From positions 1 through 46,391 of the forward strand of contig JAHJHC010000114.1 of assembly GCA_018824145.1 (NCBI GenBank): DNA of 46,391 bases, given 5' to 3'. This DNA is from Candidatus Omnitrophota bacterium. Lineage in GTDB: Bacteria; Omnitrophota; Gorgyraeia; Gorgyraeales; Gorgyraeaceae. Shown one piece after another: positions 14,300 through 43,569 of this stretch. Under the pieces are notes generated by a model. It searched no databases, was not told the DNA's origin, and worked only from the letters and a program-made list of their open reading frames with translations. A program made the translations under genes and the position numbers. Each line of letters opens with the position of its first letter. The stretch's first letter is position 1.

Positions 14300-15190
14300 C
14301 TATGGGCGGGTCTTCCACCTTTCATGAAACCAGACCCAGTGTGACGGAAATCTCCTTATGTAGTCTTCTATAACCTTTGTATATCTACCCGTATTTTCTA
14401 AGATATCCATATGTCTGTCTCCTGTAACACTTAACTCTATAGGCTCATCGATTAAAATCTCATGCCCAAATTTCTTATTCACTATAAAACACGGTATTAT
14501 AGGGGCGCCCGTTAAAAAATTCAGGACTGCCGGTCCATTAGGCGTATAAGCCAACCTGCCAAAAAAATCAACAAATACCCCCGAGATACTATGCATATCC
14601 TGGTCAGGCATCATCCCTACAAACTCATTCTTTTTGAGAAGGGCTATTACATCCTTTGCAGAGGCATCTCTATATAAGATATTTACTCCATGACGCTGTC
14701 TAACTTTACCCAGGAACCTCTCGAACTGTTCCATTCTAACGCGTCTCGCGATTACATTTACCGAATACCCTTTTATTGCGAAGTAATGGGCCAAAAACTC
14801 CCAATTTCCGAAATGCGCAGATAAAACTATCCCGCCCTTACCCTGTTTAATAAGGCATTCTATTACCTGAAGTCCTCTGCATCCTATATAATCATCTATA
14901 TTGCGCCTGTTAAACTTAGAAAGACTTATTACCTCTATAAAATTTTTACCTAGATTTCCAAAGAGCTCTTTTATTATGGCCTCTTTATCTTTTAGAGACT
15001 TAGTCTCACCAAAGGCAATATCAAGATTATTTAATGCAGTCCTACGTACCTTTTTAAGTATATAAAAAGCTGCCTTTCCAATACACTCGCCTATCTTTAG
15101 ACTTAACTTAATCGGCAAAATAAAAATAAAAAAACTCAAGAGTCTAAAGAGTAAAAAAAGAATAACCCGTCTCGGCTTTTTTCTAGCCAT
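14300..15190 (-). CDS. Lipid A late acyltransferase (LpxL/HtrB family)
   Basis: SAHFGNWE, MMPDQD, VFVDFFG, PSHWVWFHERWK. Confidence 0.92.
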   Translation of the reverse strand: MARKKPRRVILFLLFRLLSFFIFILPIKLSLKIGECIGKAAFYILKKVRRTALNNLDIAFGETKSLKDKEAIIKELFGNLGKNFIEVISLSKFNRRNIDDYIGCRGLQVIECLIKQGKGGIVLSAHFGNWEFLAHYFAIKGYSVNVIARRVRMEQFERFLGKVRQRHGVNILYRDASAKDVIALLKKNEFVGMMPDQDMHSISGVFVDFFGRLAYTPNGPAVLNFLTGAPIIPCFIVNKKFGHEILIDEPIELSVTGDRHMDILENTGRYTKVIEDYIRRFPSHWVWFHERWKTRP

Positions 15191-15199
15191 GGCTGAAAT

Positions 15200-15229
15200 A
15201 TGGTATCATATATAGCATATAAAAGTCAA
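15200..15229 (-). promoter_or_regulatory. Putative promoter of the acyltransferase-lptC-lptB unit (near-leaderless)
   Basis: TTGACT (15229-15224)-N18-TACCAT (15205-15200) with extended TG; ATG 10 nt downstream. Confidence 0.45.
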
Positions 15230-15240
15230 CCTGAAAACCC

Positions 15241-15269
15241 TTGCCTTTTTGATTTTCATATGATATTTT
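15241..15269 (+). promoter_or_regulatory. Putative divergent promoter of the small protein/protease pair
   Basis: TTGCCT-N17-TATTTT with TGn extension. Confidence 0.35.
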
Positions 15270-15279
15270 AATAAAGGGG

Positions 15280-15522
15280 GTGATAAGATTGTATTCTCAG
15301 ACAATCGAAGAGATCAAAAAAAGGCATCGCCAAGAATGGCTTCTTATTTCAGTGGACAAGGTAGATGAATCTACTACCACACCTATCTCCGGCAGACTCA
15401 TTGCTCATAGCCCTCAGAGGGATGAAATTTATAAGAAACTACTCGTCTTTAAGCGGAGAAAGCCGGTTCTTATTTCTTACTCCGAAGACACTGCACCTGG
15501 AAACTTTATCACTGGATTCTAA
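15280..15522 (+). CDS. Small hypothetical protein, DUF5678-like
   Basis: EEIKKRHRQEWLLI...GRLIAHSPQRDEIY pattern resembles small proteins found upstream of retropepsins (from recall); true start may be TTG 15289. Confidence 0.7.
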   Translation: MIRLYSQTIEEIKKRHRQEWLLISVDKVDESTTTPISGRLIAHSPQRDEIYKKLLVFKRRKPVLISYSEDTAPGNFITGF

Positions 15523-15528
15523 AGATAA

Positions 15529-15924
15529 ATGGCAAAATTCAAACTAGCATCAGAAAAAGGGTTATTAATCTGCCATGTCAAGATCTCTGGAAAAGGTAAG
15601 CCAGTATTAATGAAAATGGCCATTGATACAGGCACTACTATAACCATCGTCCCCTACGAAGCTGTATTAAGCATTGGTTTAGTTCCTGAAAATTCAAATA
15701 GAACAATAGAAGTAACAACAGGCAGCGGCAGCGTAACACGTCCGATAGTAACCATCCCTAAATTCTCATGTTTTGGATTTACGATCAGAGACCTAGACGT
15801 AATCTGTCACAATCTCCCATCAGAAAGCCCAGTTGAAGGCCTACTGTGTCTAAACTTCCTAAAAACCTTCAAACTAATCCTAGACTTCCCAAAAAATACA
15901 ATCCAAATAGTAAAGAAAAAATAA
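15529..15924 (+). CDS. Retropepsin-like (clan AA) single-domain aspartic protease
   Basis: AIDTGTT catalytic motif; flap EVTTGSG; C-terminal GLLCLNFL (canonical GLLG). Confidence 0.85.
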   Translation: MAKFKLASEKGLLICHVKISGKGKPVLMKMAIDTGTTITIVPYEAVLSIGLVPENSNRTIEVTTGSGSVTRPIVTIPKFSCFGFTIRDLDVICHNLPSESPVEGLLCLNFLKTFKLILDFPKNTIQIVKKK

Positions 15925-15933
15925 TTAAAATAA

Positions 15934-16592
15934 TTGTACCGTTTGCGAATTTAGCTACCCACCTGTCCCTTTTTTCAAGATTAAAAGTGTCCCCATTGTA
16001 AAAAATTGAAAGAAAACCCCATACTACTGTGTCTATATATAAGGAGGTGATAAAATATGGCTAGAATAGGTAGGGTTTACAGTGGTTGTTATTGCTATCA
16101 CATTATTACAAGAGGCAACCAAAAACAAAATGTTTTCTTAAATGAAAAAGACTACGCTAGATATGTTGGCATATTAAAAAGAGCTAAAAGAAAATACAAT
16201 ATTCTACTTTTTTCCTATTGCCTTATGCCAAATCATGTACATCTTTTGATTGAAACAAAATCATCTAGTAATATGTCGAACTTTATGCGCTGGATTAATC
16301 GAGGGTACGCAGCATATTTTAATACAGCTTACCAGAAAACAGGCCACTTGTGGCAAGGCAGGTTTAAGAGTAAACCTATATTAAAAGGGCAATATTTAAT
16401 TCATTGCGGAAACTATATCGAAGCTAACCCTGTTAGAGCAAATATTGCAGATGATATAGCAAACTATAAATGGAGTAGCTATAAAGAAAGATGTCTATTA
16501 TCTAAAAGTTCCATACTAGATGGGATAGTTAGGGGACAGTTTTAATCTTAAAATTGGGGACACTTTGATAGGTGAATTCGCAAACGGTACAA
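15934..16592 (+). mobile_element. 659-bp RAYT cassette bounded by 61-bp imperfect inverted repeats (outer 18 bp perfect)
   Basis: Left arm 15934-15994, right arm 16532-16592; TTGTACCGTTTGCGAATT / AATTCGCAAACGGTACAA; two TGTCCC/GGGACA boxes 24 bp apart in each arm; no target duplication seen. Confidence 0.85.
16057..16545 (+). CDS. REP-associated tyrosine transposase (Y1 HUH, IS200-like superfamily)
   Basis: YHIITRGN, YCLMPNHVHLL (HUH), GHLWQGRFKS, YIEANPVRA (catalytic Tyr), YKWSSY; RBS AAGGAGGTGA. Confidence 0.92.
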   Translation: MARIGRVYSGCYCYHIITRGNQKQNVFLNEKDYARYVGILKRAKRKYNILLFSYCLMPNHVHLLIETKSSSNMSNFMRWINRGYAAYFNTAYQKTGHLWQGRFKSKPILKGQYLIHCGNYIEANPVRANIADDIANYKWSSYKERCLLSKSSILDGIVRGQF

Positions 16593-16601
16593 AGCTCGTT
16601 G

Positions 16602-17051
16602 CTAATTTTGATCTGTGGGGTTTAGTTTTAGAGTGTATGTTTCTTCTTCTTGTTCTAGGACTACACTGTTTTGATTGATCTCAATTATGGTTACACCGCC
16701 TAGAATCTCACCTACCTCTACAACATTATTATTTATAATAGCATATGGGGTATCTTTGTCCCATACAATGCCGTTTAGAATTAAACCCTCTAACGTAGCA
16801 CCCATTGAAGGGCCTAGAAAAAATGGGTCCCTGCCCCATCCCTCTTTTATATCGGATTCTTCTATCTCGGGTATATCAAAAGAGATAGGTGCAGATAAAG
16901 AAGATACTACTTCAGTATTTGCCTTGATTATTAAAAATTTCTTCTTGTGAATTTTTTGAACATTACCAATAACTAAAAATATCAAGAAGATAATGCCAAT
17001 ACCTGTTATTGTAAGTTCAAGCCTCTCTTTTTTACCTAAGTTTTTAAACAT
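16602..17051 (-). CDS. PilP/MshK/GspC-like pilus assembly protein
   Basis: N-terminal TM; WGRDPF; LILNGIVWD...AIINNNVVEVGE...IIEINQNSVVL beta domain; follows pilO. Confidence 0.7.
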   Translation of the reverse strand: MFKNLGKKERLELTITGIGIIFLIFLVIGNVQKIHKKKFLIIKANTEVVSSLSAPISFDIPEIEESDIKEGWGRDPFFLGPSMGATLEGLILNGIVWDKDTPYAIINNNVVEVGEILGGVTIIEINQNSVVLEQEEETYTLKLNPTDQN

Positions 17052-17052
17052 A

Positions 17053-17637
17053 TTATTTCCCGATTATATAAGCGATTAAATCTACCTTGGCCTTTATCTT
17101 AGGTTTAATATCCTCATCTTTTTCTATATCTACTTTTTCTATGGAAATCATAGGTGTTCTATTCATTTCTAGGCTCATAAGGAATTCTCCCAATGCCTGA
17201 TATCTTGACTCAACCCTCAAGGTTAAAGGCATAGATTTGCAAAAATAATCCGAGATTTCAACTTCTCTTCCATTATGATCTTTATATATTTCGATGTTTT
17301 CCGGCTTTAAAGAAATGACATTTATTTTAAAATATCTTGCCTTCTCATTTAGCTGTTTAATTATATCAGACACCTCTTGTTCGGAAGGAAAGGCCCTCTC
17401 AAGTAAATCCACCTTCTCACGCATCTTTATAATATTATCTTTTAGATCGGCCTCTCCGCCGATAAAATTGTAAAGGTCATCCATATCAGTCTTTATTTCT
17501 TTGTATTCCCCAGCCAACCTTTTAATCTCCTTTGACTTAGGGAAATACACGAATTGGAACAATATCAAAACTACTAACACTAAAACACCAACAGTTATGA
17601 TATTTTTTTTATTCTCTACTATAAATTTAATATCCAC
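17053..17637 (-). CDS. pilO: Type IV pilus assembly protein PilO/MshJ-like
   Basis: TM + coiled coil + FPSEQEVSDII...YQALGEFL ferredoxin-like domain. Confidence 0.8.
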   Translation of the reverse strand: MDIKFIVENKKNIITVGVLVLVVLILFQFVYFPKSKEIKRLAGEYKEIKTDMDDLYNFIGGEADLKDNIIKMREKVDLLERAFPSEQEVSDIIKQLNEKARYFKINVISLKPENIEIYKDHNGREVEISDYFCKSMPLTLRVESRYQALGEFLMSLEMNRTPMISIEKVDIEKDEDIKPKIKAKVDLIAYIIGK

Positions 17638-17640
17638 ACC

Positions 17641-19170
17641 CTACCTCGTAAAATCACTGGTTATCTCAAAGTCTAATGCCCCTTGCGGAAAATCTTCGTT
17701 CTTCCCGCTAAATACCAGCTTTACATTCTCAAGTATAGGAGAACGCTCCAAACCTGACATGAATTCGCTCAATTCTTCTCCTTTCAAGATAATACCTGAA
17801 AGCAATAGATTCGGCTCTGTGTCTTTTATAACTAAATTACCCAAGATTACAGAAGGAAGTAAAAGATTACTCATCTCTCTCATTATTTTTCCTGTCTCTA
17901 TAGTGCCACTGGATACAGTATTTACTGCAGAACCGAGCACAACCATCTTGTCTTTAATCAAACTTATATCCTGCATTGTCTCATGGTGGGATTTATAAAT
18001 CTTTATCTCTTCCCTTAAATTAATCGATCTGACGGACAATAATCCGTAAGATATCAAAAATAAAATCCCAAACACAATAGAAACCAATCTTATAGAAATC
18101 CTCTTTAATTCCCTCCCCTTCTCCTCTTTAAATCTCTCCGGAAGCATATTAATATCAGTATCGCTACTTAAAGCCAGGCCAGTCGCCACCGCAATCTCCG
18201 GAAGGGTATTTATTATCTCTACACCTATTTCTCTGGATAAATATTCCTTGAGGCCCTTTAGTTTCGAACCATTGCCTGCCAGTATAACCTTTCTGACAAG
18301 CTCACATTTAAATTGATGTTCACAATATTCCAAAGATGCCTTTATTTGATTCGCAAGCCTTTCCAAGACCGGCCTCATCATAGATAGAATCTTTATATCT
18401 CCGGGAATACCTTGCTCACATTTTATCCTCTCTGCTTCTTCTCTCGAAAGCTCAACCTTACCTTGATCTGATATTAAAACGCCTGTCATTACATCTGTAA
18501 TACTATCTCCGCCTATGGCCACATCCCTTGTAAAACAAAGTTTTTTATTTCCAATAATTGCTATTGTAGTTACGACACTTCCTATATCCACGATACTTAT
18601 AGTCTCTTGGGGTGAAATGAGATCAAAATAATCCACATAGCGAGCAAGTGCGTATTCAGTTGGAACAACACTTTTTATCTTCAACCCAAGACTATTTATC
18701 TCTTTCACCTTGGCTTCGACATCTGCTTCTTTATAAACTACTGCGAGCAACTCTATCTTCTTAGATTCACCCTCTTCTTTTTCTCCCAGAATACTAAATT
18801 TTATCTTAGCCTTATCAAGATTAAACTGAACCTGGTCTTTCAATTCCCACCTTAATGCCTCTTCTATTTCTTCGTGAGGCATAAAAGGGATGCTTACATT
18901 TTTTATTGCCAATGCATCTCCTTTAAAATTTATACATACCCGATCATCAGTGCCTATATCCATCCTAGTGACTAAATCTTTTAACTCATGAGTCTCAGCT
19001 ACTAAGGTATCCTTAAGAGGGACATCTTTAACGCCCTCTCTCACTTTCACTGTTCTAAAATGTTTAGTACCCAAATCCAGGCCTATCAGGTTTCCAGACT
19101 TTTGCCTTAAACCTAAATCTATAAGGATGGATTCTATCTCTTTTTTCAATTCATCTATAATATTTTTCAT
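17641..19170 (-). CDS. pilM: PilM-PilN fusion (MshI/GspL-like)
   Basis: IGLDLG, IVDIGS, IGGDSIT, ILAGNGSKLKGL (actin-like PilM), then INMLP + TM + PilN domain in one ORF. Confidence 0.85.
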   Translation of the reverse strand: MKNIIDELKKEIESILIDLGLRQKSGNLIGLDLGTKHFRTVKVREGVKDVPLKDTLVAETHELKDLVTRMDIGTDDRVCINFKGDALAIKNVSIPFMPHEEIEEALRWELKDQVQFNLDKAKIKFSILGEKEEGESKKIELLAVVYKEADVEAKVKEINSLGLKIKSVVPTEYALARYVDYFDLISPQETISIVDIGSVVTTIAIIGNKKLCFTRDVAIGGDSITDVMTGVLISDQGKVELSREEAERIKCEQGIPGDIKILSMMRPVLERLANQIKASLEYCEHQFKCELVRKVILAGNGSKLKGLKEYLSREIGVEIINTLPEIAVATGLALSSDTDINMLPERFKEEKGRELKRISIRLVSIVFGILFLISYGLLSVRSINLREEIKIYKSHHETMQDISLIKDKMVVLGSAVNTVSSGTIETGKIMREMSNLLLPSVILGNLVIKDTEPNLLLSGIILKGEELSEFMSGLERSPILENVKLVFSGKNEDFPQGALDFEITSDFTR

Positions 19171-24729: not shown

Positions 24730-24800
24730 AAAATTCGGGACACATCCCAATTTTCAAACTTTGTAACTACATGTGAAAATTGGGATGTGTCCCGAATTTT
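24730..24800. repeat. GGGACACATCCC hairpin (27-bp perfect stem, 17-nt loop) between pilin and YfhO genes
   Basis: AAAATTCGGGACACATCCCAATTTTCA / TGAAAATTGGGATGTGTCCCGAATTTT. Confidence 0.92.
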
Positions 24801-24811
24801 CCTGAAGTTTT

Positions 24812-41490: not shown

Positions 41491-43569
41491 TTCCATCACC
41501 AACTTAAATACTTCTTCCACGCCAATTTTCTCCATGCATCTGATTCTCTTACAATCGGATTTATAACATGGGGAGCAACTTAGTTCCTTTTTTATAATAG
41601 TCCCCCTATATATAGGCTCAAAGTGCCTTCTTGGATCAGTAGGGCCGAATAGGGCGATAAAATTTGTATCCATACCTGAAGCGACATGCATAGGAGCACT
41701 ATCTCCTGTAACAAAGACCTTGCACTTTTTTATCAACGCGGCTAACTGTGTAATCGTTGTCTTGCCAGAGGCGTCTATAACTTTATTATGTGTCATGTTC
41801 ATGAAATCCCTGACCAGGGACTTTTCTTCTTTAGACCCTGTAACAATGACCCTTATATCCTTTGCCGCCAACATATCTGAAAGTTTTGCAAAACATCTTA
41901 TTGGCCATCTCTTAGTCTTCCAACTGCCTCCGATATTAATCCCTACCAGAACCTGGTCTTTTCTCACCCATTCATTTTTCAATAAATTATCTATGTATAT
42001 AAAATCTTCTTTTCCAGGCCATGCTTCCAAACGCCTAGATGCACCTATTGTATTAATACCTGCTCTTTTAAGTACCCTGAACTGTTCTTCAACAGGCCCC
42101 ACACCTCCGATCTTCAAGTGTCTCAATCTATTATTCAACAAAAATCCGAACTTTTTATTATCATAGCCAAATCTTCTGGGAACAGCTCCTAACCACGCAA
42201 CAATATGGCTGGCCTTATTATTCTGCAAATCTATAGACATATCAAATGCCTTACCTCTTATAATAGAACCTATCCTCCATAAACTGCCTATACCTTTATC
42301 CTCGGCTTCCCTATGGTAAAGTATAATATCATCTATATACGGGCATCTCTTCAACAGCACGCCGGAGAATGCACCTACCAACACACTAATAAAGGCATTT
42401 GGAAAAGCATTCCTTATGGCCCTAAGACTGGGCACACTAAGTATGACATCGCCTATTGCGCCTATCTTTATCACCAAGATCCTTTTTTTATTACATGCCT
42501 CATCATAGACTTTTATAGTGCAATCCACCATCCGGTCCAGGCTATACTCTTTTTCAACCTTTCTCCTTGCCTCAAATGCCAGGTCTTTGGCAAGATTTCT
42601 GTCCTTTAGCAATCTTATTATAGAATTTACTATCTCCATAATATCGCCGGGCTTTACAAGTAAACCTGTCTTACCGTCTTCTATAATATCCACTGCGCCG
42701 CCTATACGCGTACTTATGACAGGCACACCGCTTGCGCCAGCCTCAACAATCACCCGGCCAAACGCCTCTTGGCCTACAGAAGGAAGCACCAAAAGATCAA
42801 GTCCGGACATTATTTTGGGTATATCCTGCTGCGAACCCAATAATTCTACAAATCTCTCTATATTAAGTTTGGAGATCAACACCTTTAAATTTTTCTTGTA
42901 TTCAGGCTTATTTTTAGGCGAATCCCCTACAATCAATATCTTTACATTCGGAAAGATTCTCACGACTTTCGCAATCGCCTGTAAAAAAAAGATATGGCCT
43001 TTTATAGGCGTGATCCTACCTATAATACCTATTTTATACTCTGCCTTTTGACGAGTAGTATCCGGCGGATTGAATCTAAATCTTTCAAGATCGACTCCCC
43101 TGGGAATAAATCTTATCCTTTCGTGTGGAACACCAAAATCTCCTATCATATGCCGCCCCACAATGCCGGAAGCTACGATTACAAATTTACCCCAACCCAT
43201 TACGCGACTTAAAAAATGTCTCGAGTAATAGCCATGTGCTGTAGTGATAAAACTGGCATTTGTATGTCTAGCGGCAAAAAACGCAATAAGTGCCGGTACG
43301 CGAGAGCGGGCATGTACGACATCAATACGTTCTTCTTTCATGATGCGCTCTAATTTTTTAACCATCTTGACTACAGTAAACAGTGATTTTTCATGAACTG
43401 GAAGTTGTATATGTCTTGCACCTGCATCCATCAGGTCTCTCACCATTGTCCCGCCATTAGATACAACAATAGCCCTATGACCTCTTTTAATTAATTCCTT
43501 AGACAAATCAATTGTCCCGGTCTCTACGCCGCCTACATCCAATGCCGGAAGGATCTGTAAAATATTCAT
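41455..43569 (-). CDS. GT4-GT9 bifunctional glycosyltransferase fusion
   Basis: N-terminal GGVETG...EAFGRVIVEA (GT4); C-terminal IGAIGDVILSVP...TGDSAPMHVA (GT9). Confidence 0.92.
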   Translation of the reverse strand: MNILQILPALDVGGVETGTIDLSKELIKRGHRAIVVSNGGTMVRDLMDAGARHIQLPVHEKSLFTVVKMVKKLERIMKEERIDVVHARSRVPALIAFFAARHTNASFITTAHGYYSRHFLSRVMGWGKFVIVASGIVGRHMIGDFGVPHERIRFIPRGVDLERFRFNPPDTTRQKAEYKIGIIGRITPIKGHIFFLQAIAKVVRIFPNVKILIVGDSPKNKPEYKKNLKVLISKLNIERFVELLGSQQDIPKIMSGLDLLVLPSVGQEAFGRVIVEAGASGVPVISTRIGGAVDIIEDGKTGLLVKPGDIMEIVNSIIRLLKDRNLAKDLAFEARRKVEKEYSLDRMVDCTIKVYDEACNKKRILVIKIGAIGDVILSVPSLRAIRNAFPNAFISVLVGAFSGVLLKRCPYIDDIILYHREAEDKGIGSLWRIGSIIRGKAFDMSIDLQNNKASHIVAWLGAVPRRFGYDNKKFGFLLNNRLRHLKIGGVGPVEEQFRVLKRAGINTIGASRRLEAWPGKEDFIYIDNLLKNEWVRKDQVLVGINIGGSWKTKRWPIRCFAKLSDMLAAKDIRVIVTGSKEEKSLVRDFMNMTHNKVIDASGKTTITQLAALIKKCKVFVTGDSAPMHVASGMDTNFIALFGPTDPRRHFEPIYRGTIIKKELSCSPCYKSDCKRIRCMEKIGVEEVFKLVMEKISNDKSQIPK

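Follow-up and report, generated by a model that had tools for sequence, protein, structure and literature searches.

Long terminal inverted repeats (TIRs) may take the place of repetitive extragenic palindromic (REP) sequences around genes that resemble those of tyrosine transposases associated with REPs (RAYTs). Such units have been described by Di Nocera, De Gregorio, and Rocco (2013, BMC Genomics 14:522; PMC3733652), who named them TIRtrons and their proteins TIRYTs. According to that paper, the sequence GGGGWSAS is common to some TIRs, the TIRs extend into the gene at its 5′ or 3′ end, some species have further TIR copies scattered as singles, dimers, and groups, and one genome can hold several TIRtrons that each have a TIR of their own. 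Here, we describe a compact unit of 659 bp at positions 15934–16592 of a contig from a Candidatus Omnitrophota bacterium (assembly GCA_018824145.1, contig JAHJHC010000114.1, C144 below). The whole contig, 46,391 nucleotides (nt) long, is referred to as the window, and the genome to which it belongs (G000) comprises 1.73 Mb in 149 contigs and is 91% complete. The unit, or cassette, carries a gene for a protein of 162 amino acids (aa) between two inverted arms, and it is most probably a TIRtron, i.e., the gene of a RAYT-class (TnpA-Y1 class 2, with a subclass-2.1-like core) nuclease/transposase of the HUH (His-hydrophobic-His) single-tyrosine type, placed between cognate arms whose gene-less derivatives would have been spread in trans. 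The original prediction, made from the sequence of the window, took the arrangement for a different architecture. The same layout is the one named TIRtron/TIRYT in PMC3733652; it was thus already described in 2013 and is catalogued in the RAYT literature, and the cassette represents no new class of system.

In the accessible part of Quentin et al. (2018; PMC6006769), TIRYTs are equated with TnpA-Y1 subclass 2.1, which is mapped to RAYT Group 1 of Bertels et al. (2017; PMC5581495). For Group 1, the latter paper states that the commonest 16-mer in the flanks occurs about 12 times. Table 1 of PMC6006769 characterizes subclass 2.1 by the motifs NHVH, W[EQ], and YIELNP or Y[IV]HLNP with a proximal SS tail, and the same source assigns to it a distal C-terminal helix-turn-helix (HTH) domain (Bac_DnaA_C, HTH_23, or HTH_28), which, it remarks, may not be the reader of the boxes, and gives 238 aa as the median length. 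The corresponding motifs of the E. coli-type subclass 2.2 are DHLH, WE, and YIHYNP in the same available text. The strings “Omnitroph”, “TIRYT”, and “Planctomyc” are absent from the available portion of the supplementary text of PMC6006769, and among the literature matches listed there was no publication joining Omnitrophota with RAYT or IS200 elements.

The cassette shares with the TIRtrons, as they appear in the available part of PMC3733652, a RAYT-like gene, long TIRs that do not fold on their own, the GGGGWSAS sequence, an overlap with the 3′ end of the gene, dispersed copies, and the presence of several such units per genome. It differs in its host, since Omnitrophota are not named in that part of the paper, and in the build of the arm, where an outer terminus of 13–18 nt is combined with two inner boxes of opposite orientation 24 nt apart. 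It also differs in that the arms are accompanied by minimal hairpins consisting of nothing but the termini, and in the shortness of the protein.

Organization of the Cassette

The two arms, 61 nt each and 82% complementary, form an inverted pair with 537 nt between them. The left arm lies at 15934–15994 on the forward strand and the right arm at 16532–16592 on the reverse strand, and they match the profile of the arm family with nhmmer E values of 1.6e-19 and 1.3e-17, respectively. Each arm (the A module) begins at its outer end with 18 nt, TTGTACCGTTTGCGAATT, which are the same on both sides (15934–15951, forward strand, in the left arm), continues with a variable stretch, and ends with two boxes, the second of which begins 24 nt after the start of the first. 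In the left arm, the boxes read TGTCCC (15964–15969 and 15988–15993, forward strand); on the same strand, those of the right arm read GGGACA (16533–16538 and 16557–16562). The second left box is part of GTGTCCCC at 15987–15994, the reverse complement of GGGGACAC and a full match to GGGGWSAS. The octamer GGGGACAC itself stands at 16556–16563 around the outer right box, and GGGGACAG at 16532–16539, around the inner one, also fits GGGGWSAS; the first left box agrees with the reverse-complemented consensus at 7/8 positions.

The gene (16057–16545, forward strand) is preceded by an AAGGAGG ribosome-binding site (16041–16047, forward strand), 9 nt 5′ of the ATG, read from the sequence. The right arm completes the open reading frame (ORF): the final 14 nt comprise part of an Arg codon, the codons for Gly-Gln-Phe, and the TAA stop, with the inner right box coding for the Gly-Gln of the C-terminal tail. 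The flanks of the cassette, taattaaaataa| ... |agctcgttgcta, reveal no direct duplication at its ends. All of these features, from the length of the arms and their 18 perfect terminal base pairs to the paired boxes, the stop codon supplied by the right arm, and the lack of a target duplication, had been pointed out in the original prediction, and all were seen.

When the upstream flank was locally aligned with the reverse-complemented downstream flank, the arms scored 67. As a control, flanks of homologous loci were combined into 300 mismatched pairs, whose scores had a median of 19, a 95th percentile of 25, and a maximum of 43; with the arm score above the control maximum, the pairing is therefore not due to chance. 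As isolated single-stranded DNA (ssDNA), the arms are unfolded (z-scores of +0.33, −0.08, −0.41, and +0.23), and when the 677-nt unit is folded as a whole, the minimum free energy structure has the left arm paired with the right one. The gene is flanked by genuine inverted arms rather than by REP hairpins. A promoter and terminator scan of 15850–16700 gave one promoter-like site, located within the ORF (shuffle mean 3.0) and not taken for a promoter, and no terminator, and the search of 15200–17200 against Rfam gave zero matches at E <= 1.

The Y1 Protein and Its Relation to Known Enzymes

The protein matches the Pfam family Y1_Tnp (“Transposase IS200 like”) with E 1.7e-18; at E <= 0.01, this is the only Pfam domain found in its 162 residues, and a C-terminal HTH is absent. 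The NCBIfam model REP_Tyr_transpos (NF047646) gives 77.5 bits with a cut-off of 80, and the IS200 model (NF033573) gives 30.8 bits with a cut-off of 55. A single-sequence phmmer search of the PDB returned nothing at E <= 0.01. The profile of 12 clade members found the E. coli TnpA-REP structure 4ER8 with E 8.7e-9 and ISDra2 TnpA with E 0.0037. The AlphaFold model (pLDDT 83.3, pTM 0.80) can be superimposed on 4er8_A over the full length with template modeling (TM) scores of 0.71/0.70, and chains of the IS200 type align over the core only, with TM scores of 0.49–0.56.

The motifs expected of the class are easily recognized: the HUH histidines H60 and H62, a WQxR motif (W99–R102), the catalytic Y120 within YIEANP, and the serine pair S140–S141. 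Residues H60, H62, W99, Q100, R102, Y120, N124, and P125 are invariant in 13/13 aligned sequences, including E. coli RayT, to which the protein is 21% identical. The subclass 2.1 motifs are present as PNHVH, LWQ, YIEANP, and WSSY, and clade homologs at four loci (L019, L020, L022, and L023) have the YIELNP form. The protein ends about 20 residues past the SS motif and is directly followed by the right arm; the box-encoded tail, R-G-Q or R-D-T, recurs among homologs. The enzyme is of the RAYT class, not of the IS200 class, and appears intact. The designation of the gene in the original prediction as a RAYT-type transposase agrees with the NCBIfam scores and with the best PDB match. In a tree of 99 sequences, the protein falls within a clade of short proteins lacking the HTH.

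With subclass 2.1, as outlined in the available parts of the papers cited above, the cassette has in common the NHVH, WQ, YIE(L/A)NP, and SS-tail motifs, the absence of a self-folding REP beside the gene, the low copy number, and the modest number of flanking repeats. It differs in that the protein and 23 others form a separate short clade (support of 97 in the SH-aLRT, the Shimodaira–Hasegawa-like approximate likelihood ratio test).

Dispersed Arms and Hairpins in the Genome

A search of the genome with an nhmmer profile (arm copies accepted at E <= 2.7e-13, small hairpins at E <= 4.1e-8) revealed 15 arm copies: two at the cassette, two in a doublet, three single, and eight beside a small hairpin, termed H. 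The genome search of the arms that the original prediction had called for thereby uncovered a dispersed family with 13 further copies, in which the cassette is the sole gene-bearing member. In the doublet (G000:C100:12300–12419), the two arms abut and contain no gene; it folds into a 120-nt hairpin with −34 and −37 kcal/mol (z-scores of −8 and −10), so the earlier image of the cassette as a REPIN (REP doublet forming a hairpin) with the transposase as its loop is a fair one.

The H module is about 52 nt long and forms a hairpin whose stem consists of the arm terminus TTGTACCGTTTGC, i.e., the leading 13 nt of the 18-nt terminus, and its complement. Five copies were folded; four of them have a 14-bp stem, and the z-scores range from −4 to −8 over all five. 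Seven of the 15 H copies stand alone, and eight are next to an arm; in these arm–H composites, H is separated from the inner end of the arm by 0–25 variable nt and has one fixed orientation.

Any two arm copies have an identity of 0.69–1.0 (median 0.84). Conservation in the 15 copies is concentrated in nt 1–15, which are nearly invariant, in both boxes (each invariant in 15/15), and in AAGATTAAA between the boxes, and positions 19–30 are variable. The terminus TGTACCGTTTGC, 12–13 nt long, is the unit shared most widely within the family. Its 12-mer form occurs 32 times in the genome, compared with 0 for the reversed control; the genome that hosts the closest foreign homolog (G018) has 5 occurrences, and the other 39 relatives have 0–2 each. 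The original prediction had defined the family by the GGGACA box, a definition that gives way to one based on the terminus: the counts of the box octamers GGGGACAC (34) and GGGGACAG (51) exceed those of their reversed controls (22 and 30) only modestly, and a family of boxes alone was rejected. The excess of the octamers probably owes much to the arm copies and to the C67 family described below, which carry the boxes and were not subtracted.

The siting of 19 gene-less elements was assessed with a crude ORF call (ORFs of at least 100 aa). Ten of the 19 are clear of ORFs, mostly 3–40 nt from a gene end, and four overlap an ORF end by 1–21 nt. No target duplication was seen at any of the 11 elements inspected.

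Several single observations concern members of this family. Two arm copies, at G000:C27:1791–1811 (L006:1501–1521) and G000:C131:1593–1613, overlap the 3′ ends of long host ORFs by 21 nt, and the arm terminus, ending in ...TTTAG, gives these ORFs their last seven codons and the stop. On contig C47, one arm is split into a terminus (G000:C47:41976–42006) and a part with the boxes (42082–42126), about 75 nt apart; this may be an arm broken by another insertion. A diverged H hairpin at G000:C46:47370–47419 (within L011) lies 260 nt upstream of a gene for a 422-aa Y1 fusion protein (C46:45841–47109); the next gene is 13 nt away from the hairpin. In the groundwater metagenome run X2, the summed contig depth at the arm bins (15911–16011 and 16517–16617) was 39.8 and 33.5, against about 4.6 in the flanks. 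In a second independent groundwater run, X3, the depth of the left arm was 17.4 against about 3. Several different loose contig ends begin at 15993–15995. The depth in the arm bins being far above that of the flanks, the arm family is therefore multi-copy in those communities too.

Paralogs and Homologous Loci

The genome has five Y1 genes. The gene of the cassette is single-copy, the next best match in the genome, on contig C125, being 66% identical. This paralog has its own arm variant, which is present twice on either side of the gene; it reads TTGTACCGT[AT]TTGG followed by two TGTCCC boxes and keeps the plan of a terminus plus two boxes. At the same locus (G000:C125:2300–3400, i.e., L010:1302–2402), both outer edges enter tandem arrays of arm terminal bases with a period of about 9 nt, the units being GCGTCTTGT on one side and of the AAGAACTT type on the other. 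The arrays may mark ends that were cut and rejoined again and again, or they may have arisen there by slippage.

Another paralog, of 245 aa (G000:C67:12420–13230, within L012), is bracketed by a different, perfect 24-nt TIR, AAATTCGGGACACATCCCAATTTT and its complement. The 13-nt core of this TIR has 36 occurrences at 19 places, 15 of them as doublets, with loops that vary in sequence and length. The C67 locus is thus another TIRtron, and the repeat family that belongs to it has expanded and is unrelated to the arms of the cassette; simple internal deletion is no explanation for unrelated loops between perfectly conserved arms. One doublet of the C67 type is found inside the window, at 24736–24805.

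Homologs at E <= 1e-10 are present in 36 of 41 genomes (the genome itself and 40 relatives), and 1516 proteins match at the same threshold; those that are 57–70% identical are, where the source is named, Candidatus Omnitrophota transposases. For the analysis of flanks, 103 homolog loci were collected, 23 from the 41 genomes and 80 from named genome records. After six loci with a flank below 200 nt, three duplicates, and the fragmentary L014 and L018 had been dropped, 94 were counted, and at 80 of them, from many phyla, the gene is flanked by inverted repeats that score higher than the 95th percentile of the control. Arm sequences vary from clade to clade. Among the 80 repeat-flanked loci, the octamer GGGGWSAS occurs in the arms of 34 and a 7-mer of it in those of 50. 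Where the protein has at most 175 aa, repeats are found at 24/27 loci, with a median arm of 56 nt.

The short forms make up one clade of 24 proteins (23 of at most 175 aa and one of 178 aa) in the 99-sequence tree, which was rooted on E. coli RayT and obtained by a quick search with no bootstrap. All members come from metagenome-assembled genomes labeled Omnitrophota or Planctomycetes. The HTH is also missing in all 11 other short homologs scanned, and a weak Bac_DnaA_C match was confined to forms of about 300 aa (1/20 and 4/28 proteins in two scans).

Proposed Mechanism and Alternative Explanations

By analogy with solved HUH Y1 relatives, from which the binding, the cleavage sites, the ssDNA substrate, and the mobilization in trans are all inferred, the TIRtron would act as follows. 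On ssDNA, the whole arms, or just their 13-nt termini, would pair into an imperfect hairpin. The enzyme would recognize the terminus and the GGGACA boxes; Tyr120, together with a metal site formed by His60 and His62, would cut at or next to the outer ends, and the flanks would be rejoined without target duplication. Acting in trans, the enzyme may have spread three gene-less kinds of element into intergenic gaps, namely the arm doublet, the 15 hairpins of about 52 nt, and the arm-plus-hairpin composites. The gene-bearing copy would remain single, as in RAYT/REPIN systems, and therefore the enzyme may mainly serve, or be exploited by, its gene-less derivatives. It may be speculated that the closeness of H to the arms and its fixed orientation reflect insertions drawn to existing family members.

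Several points weigh against the assignment of the cassette to the TIRtrons. The 162-aa protein is without the distal HTH that, in the available part of PMC6006769, all subclass-2.1 TIRYTs carry, and its REP_Tyr_transpos score is slightly below the curated cut-off. The complete octamer GGGGWSAS is present in just three of the four boxes of the cassette and in the arms of 4/24 repeat-bearing loci of the short clade (the 7-mer in 16/24), and 14 of the 94 homolog loci have no inverted repeat above the control. Five of the 19 gene-less elements are inside the maximal extent of a crudely called ORF. The cassette is single-copy, so that its own mobility, and with it the role of autonomous family member suggested in the original prediction, is no more than putative. 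A nucleotide-level empty site, with 15933 joined to 16593, which had likewise been proposed as a check, was not found in the contigs of four metagenome runs (X2, X3, X5, and X6) placed on 14800–17800, where uncovered parts are uninformative. The lone joint, in X3, connects 15934 to 16629; its 21-nt side is below the reliability limit, it is off the arm boundaries, and such short-side joints often derive from repeats or other organisms. Finally, every catalytic step is by analogy, because no biochemical test of any TIRYT was found in the publications that use the terms TIRYT or TIRtron.

The assignment has also to be compared with the view that the cassette is a classical REPtron, in which a domesticated RAYT is served by H hairpins as REPs or REPINs and the long arms are merely an elaborate flank. 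The likeness to E. coli RayT (TnpA-REP, 4ER8) is considerable: it extends to the full-length fold, the HUH motif, and the tyrosine with an asparagine four residues later, and REP_Tyr_transpos and 4ER8 are, respectively, the best NCBIfam model and the best structural match. In both cases, a single-copy gene lies between inverted cognate repeats, with dispersed intergenic repeats and gene-less doublets elsewhere, and the H modules, imperfect palindromes mostly with 14-bp stems, together with the one REPIN-like arm doublet, would suit such a system. However, the E. coli gene is accompanied by hundreds of self-folding hairpins tagged with GTAG, whereas the sequences that flank the gene here, 61-nt arms in 15 copies, do not fold individually, and the terminus reads TTGTAC, with neither a GTAG nor a GT[AG]G tag. 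The numbers of arms and hairpins, 15 + 15, are far under the more than 100 given as usual for REPs in the available part of PMC2817692. The score under the family cut-off tells against a REPtron as well, as do the identity to E. coli RayT of just 21% and the NHVH/WQ/YIE.NP/SS motifs, which are those of subclass 2.1, not of subclass 2.2, in the accessible text of PMC6006769. A REPtron is thus an improbable alternative. As for the CGTC-type REPs, which the original prediction had counted among the flanks of classic RAYTs, the part of PMC3733652 available to us describes CGTC REPs as “not associated to transposase genes”.

If the arms belonged instead to miniature inverted-repeat transposable elements (MITEs), i.e., were the ends of an unrelated (e.g., DDE) transposase, the Y1 gene would have landed in one copy by chance. 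Perfect terminal inverted repeats of 13 nt and gene-less copies of 50–130 nt do look MITE-like, but a target duplication is missing at 11/11 elements, 80/94 homologous genes are flanked by inverted repeats, with arms differing from clade to clade, the 3′ arm is within the reading frame with a box-encoded RGQ or RDT tail that recurs in homologs, and each of two paralogs in this genome is accompanied by an arm family of its own. This makes the association by chance very improbable. An autonomous insertion sequence (IS) of the IS200/IS605 type, moving itself by peel-and-paste, is extremely improbable. In its favor are the name of the Pfam domain, the HUH Y1 core fold shared with the TnpA of IS608 and ISDra2, the compactness of 659 bp, the absence of a target duplication, and the insertion relative to conserved synteny. 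Against it, Y120-IEA-N124-P is of the YxxxNP type (class 2), not of the YxxxQ type (class 1), in the terms of the available text of PMC6006769, and the IS200 model score is far from its cut-off (30.8 vs. 55). The arms have no same-strand subterminal hairpins, which are obligate in these elements. These elements are autonomous and multi-copy, often with tnpB, and here no second copy of the gene exceeds 66% identity and no tnpB adjoins it in the ORF list of the window.

Insertion Site and Neighboring Genes

A PilP-like gene and an LpxL-like one are separated in the window by 1.4 kb (15191–16601) of genes on the opposite strand, the cassette included. These two genes are adjacent and on one strand in 8 of 15 loci of relatives; in the other seven, the contig edge was reached or the LpxL-like gene was not seen in the downstream DNA fetched. 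An 80-aa ORF (15280–15522), a gene for a retropepsin-like aspartyl protease (15529–15924; Pfam Asp_protease_2, E 1.1e-10), and the Y1 gene are all absent from the 15 loci of relatives. Measured against the conserved order of genes, the locus is an insertion. Each edge of the cassette is 9 nt from a stop codon, and the left junction was assembled independently in one groundwater run (15434–16287, with 2 differences). A cargo role of the 80-aa ORF and the protease was considered and rejected: they do not lie beside other Y1 loci (L010–L033) or elsewhere in the genome, and they are treated as unrelated neighbors.

Implications for TIRtrons

TIRtrons are widespread, as seen from the repeats at 80/94 homolog loci of many phyla. 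Compared with the available parts of the cited literature, what is mildly new here is a well-supported short clade lacking the C-terminal HTH, the two-part arms, and the minimal hairpin derivatives. The present example provides a compact, apparently intact gene-plus-arms unit together with a natural HTH-less form that keeps the boxes. From the retention of GGGACA-type boxes in the absence of the HTH, we infer agreement with the remark of Quentin et al. on the HTH, as given in the available text of PMC6006769. It is tentatively suggested, as a possibility that we rate below even chances, that the short HTH-less clade is a minimal TIRtron in which the HUH core of 162 aa suffices to read both the 13-nt terminus and the boxes, the hairpins of about 52 nt are the smallest movable unit, and the location of 8/15 H copies at the side of an arm reflects targeting to family members. 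If this is true, the C-terminal HTH of ordinary TIRYTs would not be the box reader, and the 659-bp cassette would be a convenient system for studying TIRYT action.

The three natural classes of deletion derivatives suggest that it is the 13-nt terminus and the two boxes that act in cis. For the annotation of this genome, the TIRtron accounts for about 30 intergenic repeats that fragment the assembly, two of which supply stop codons to host genes.

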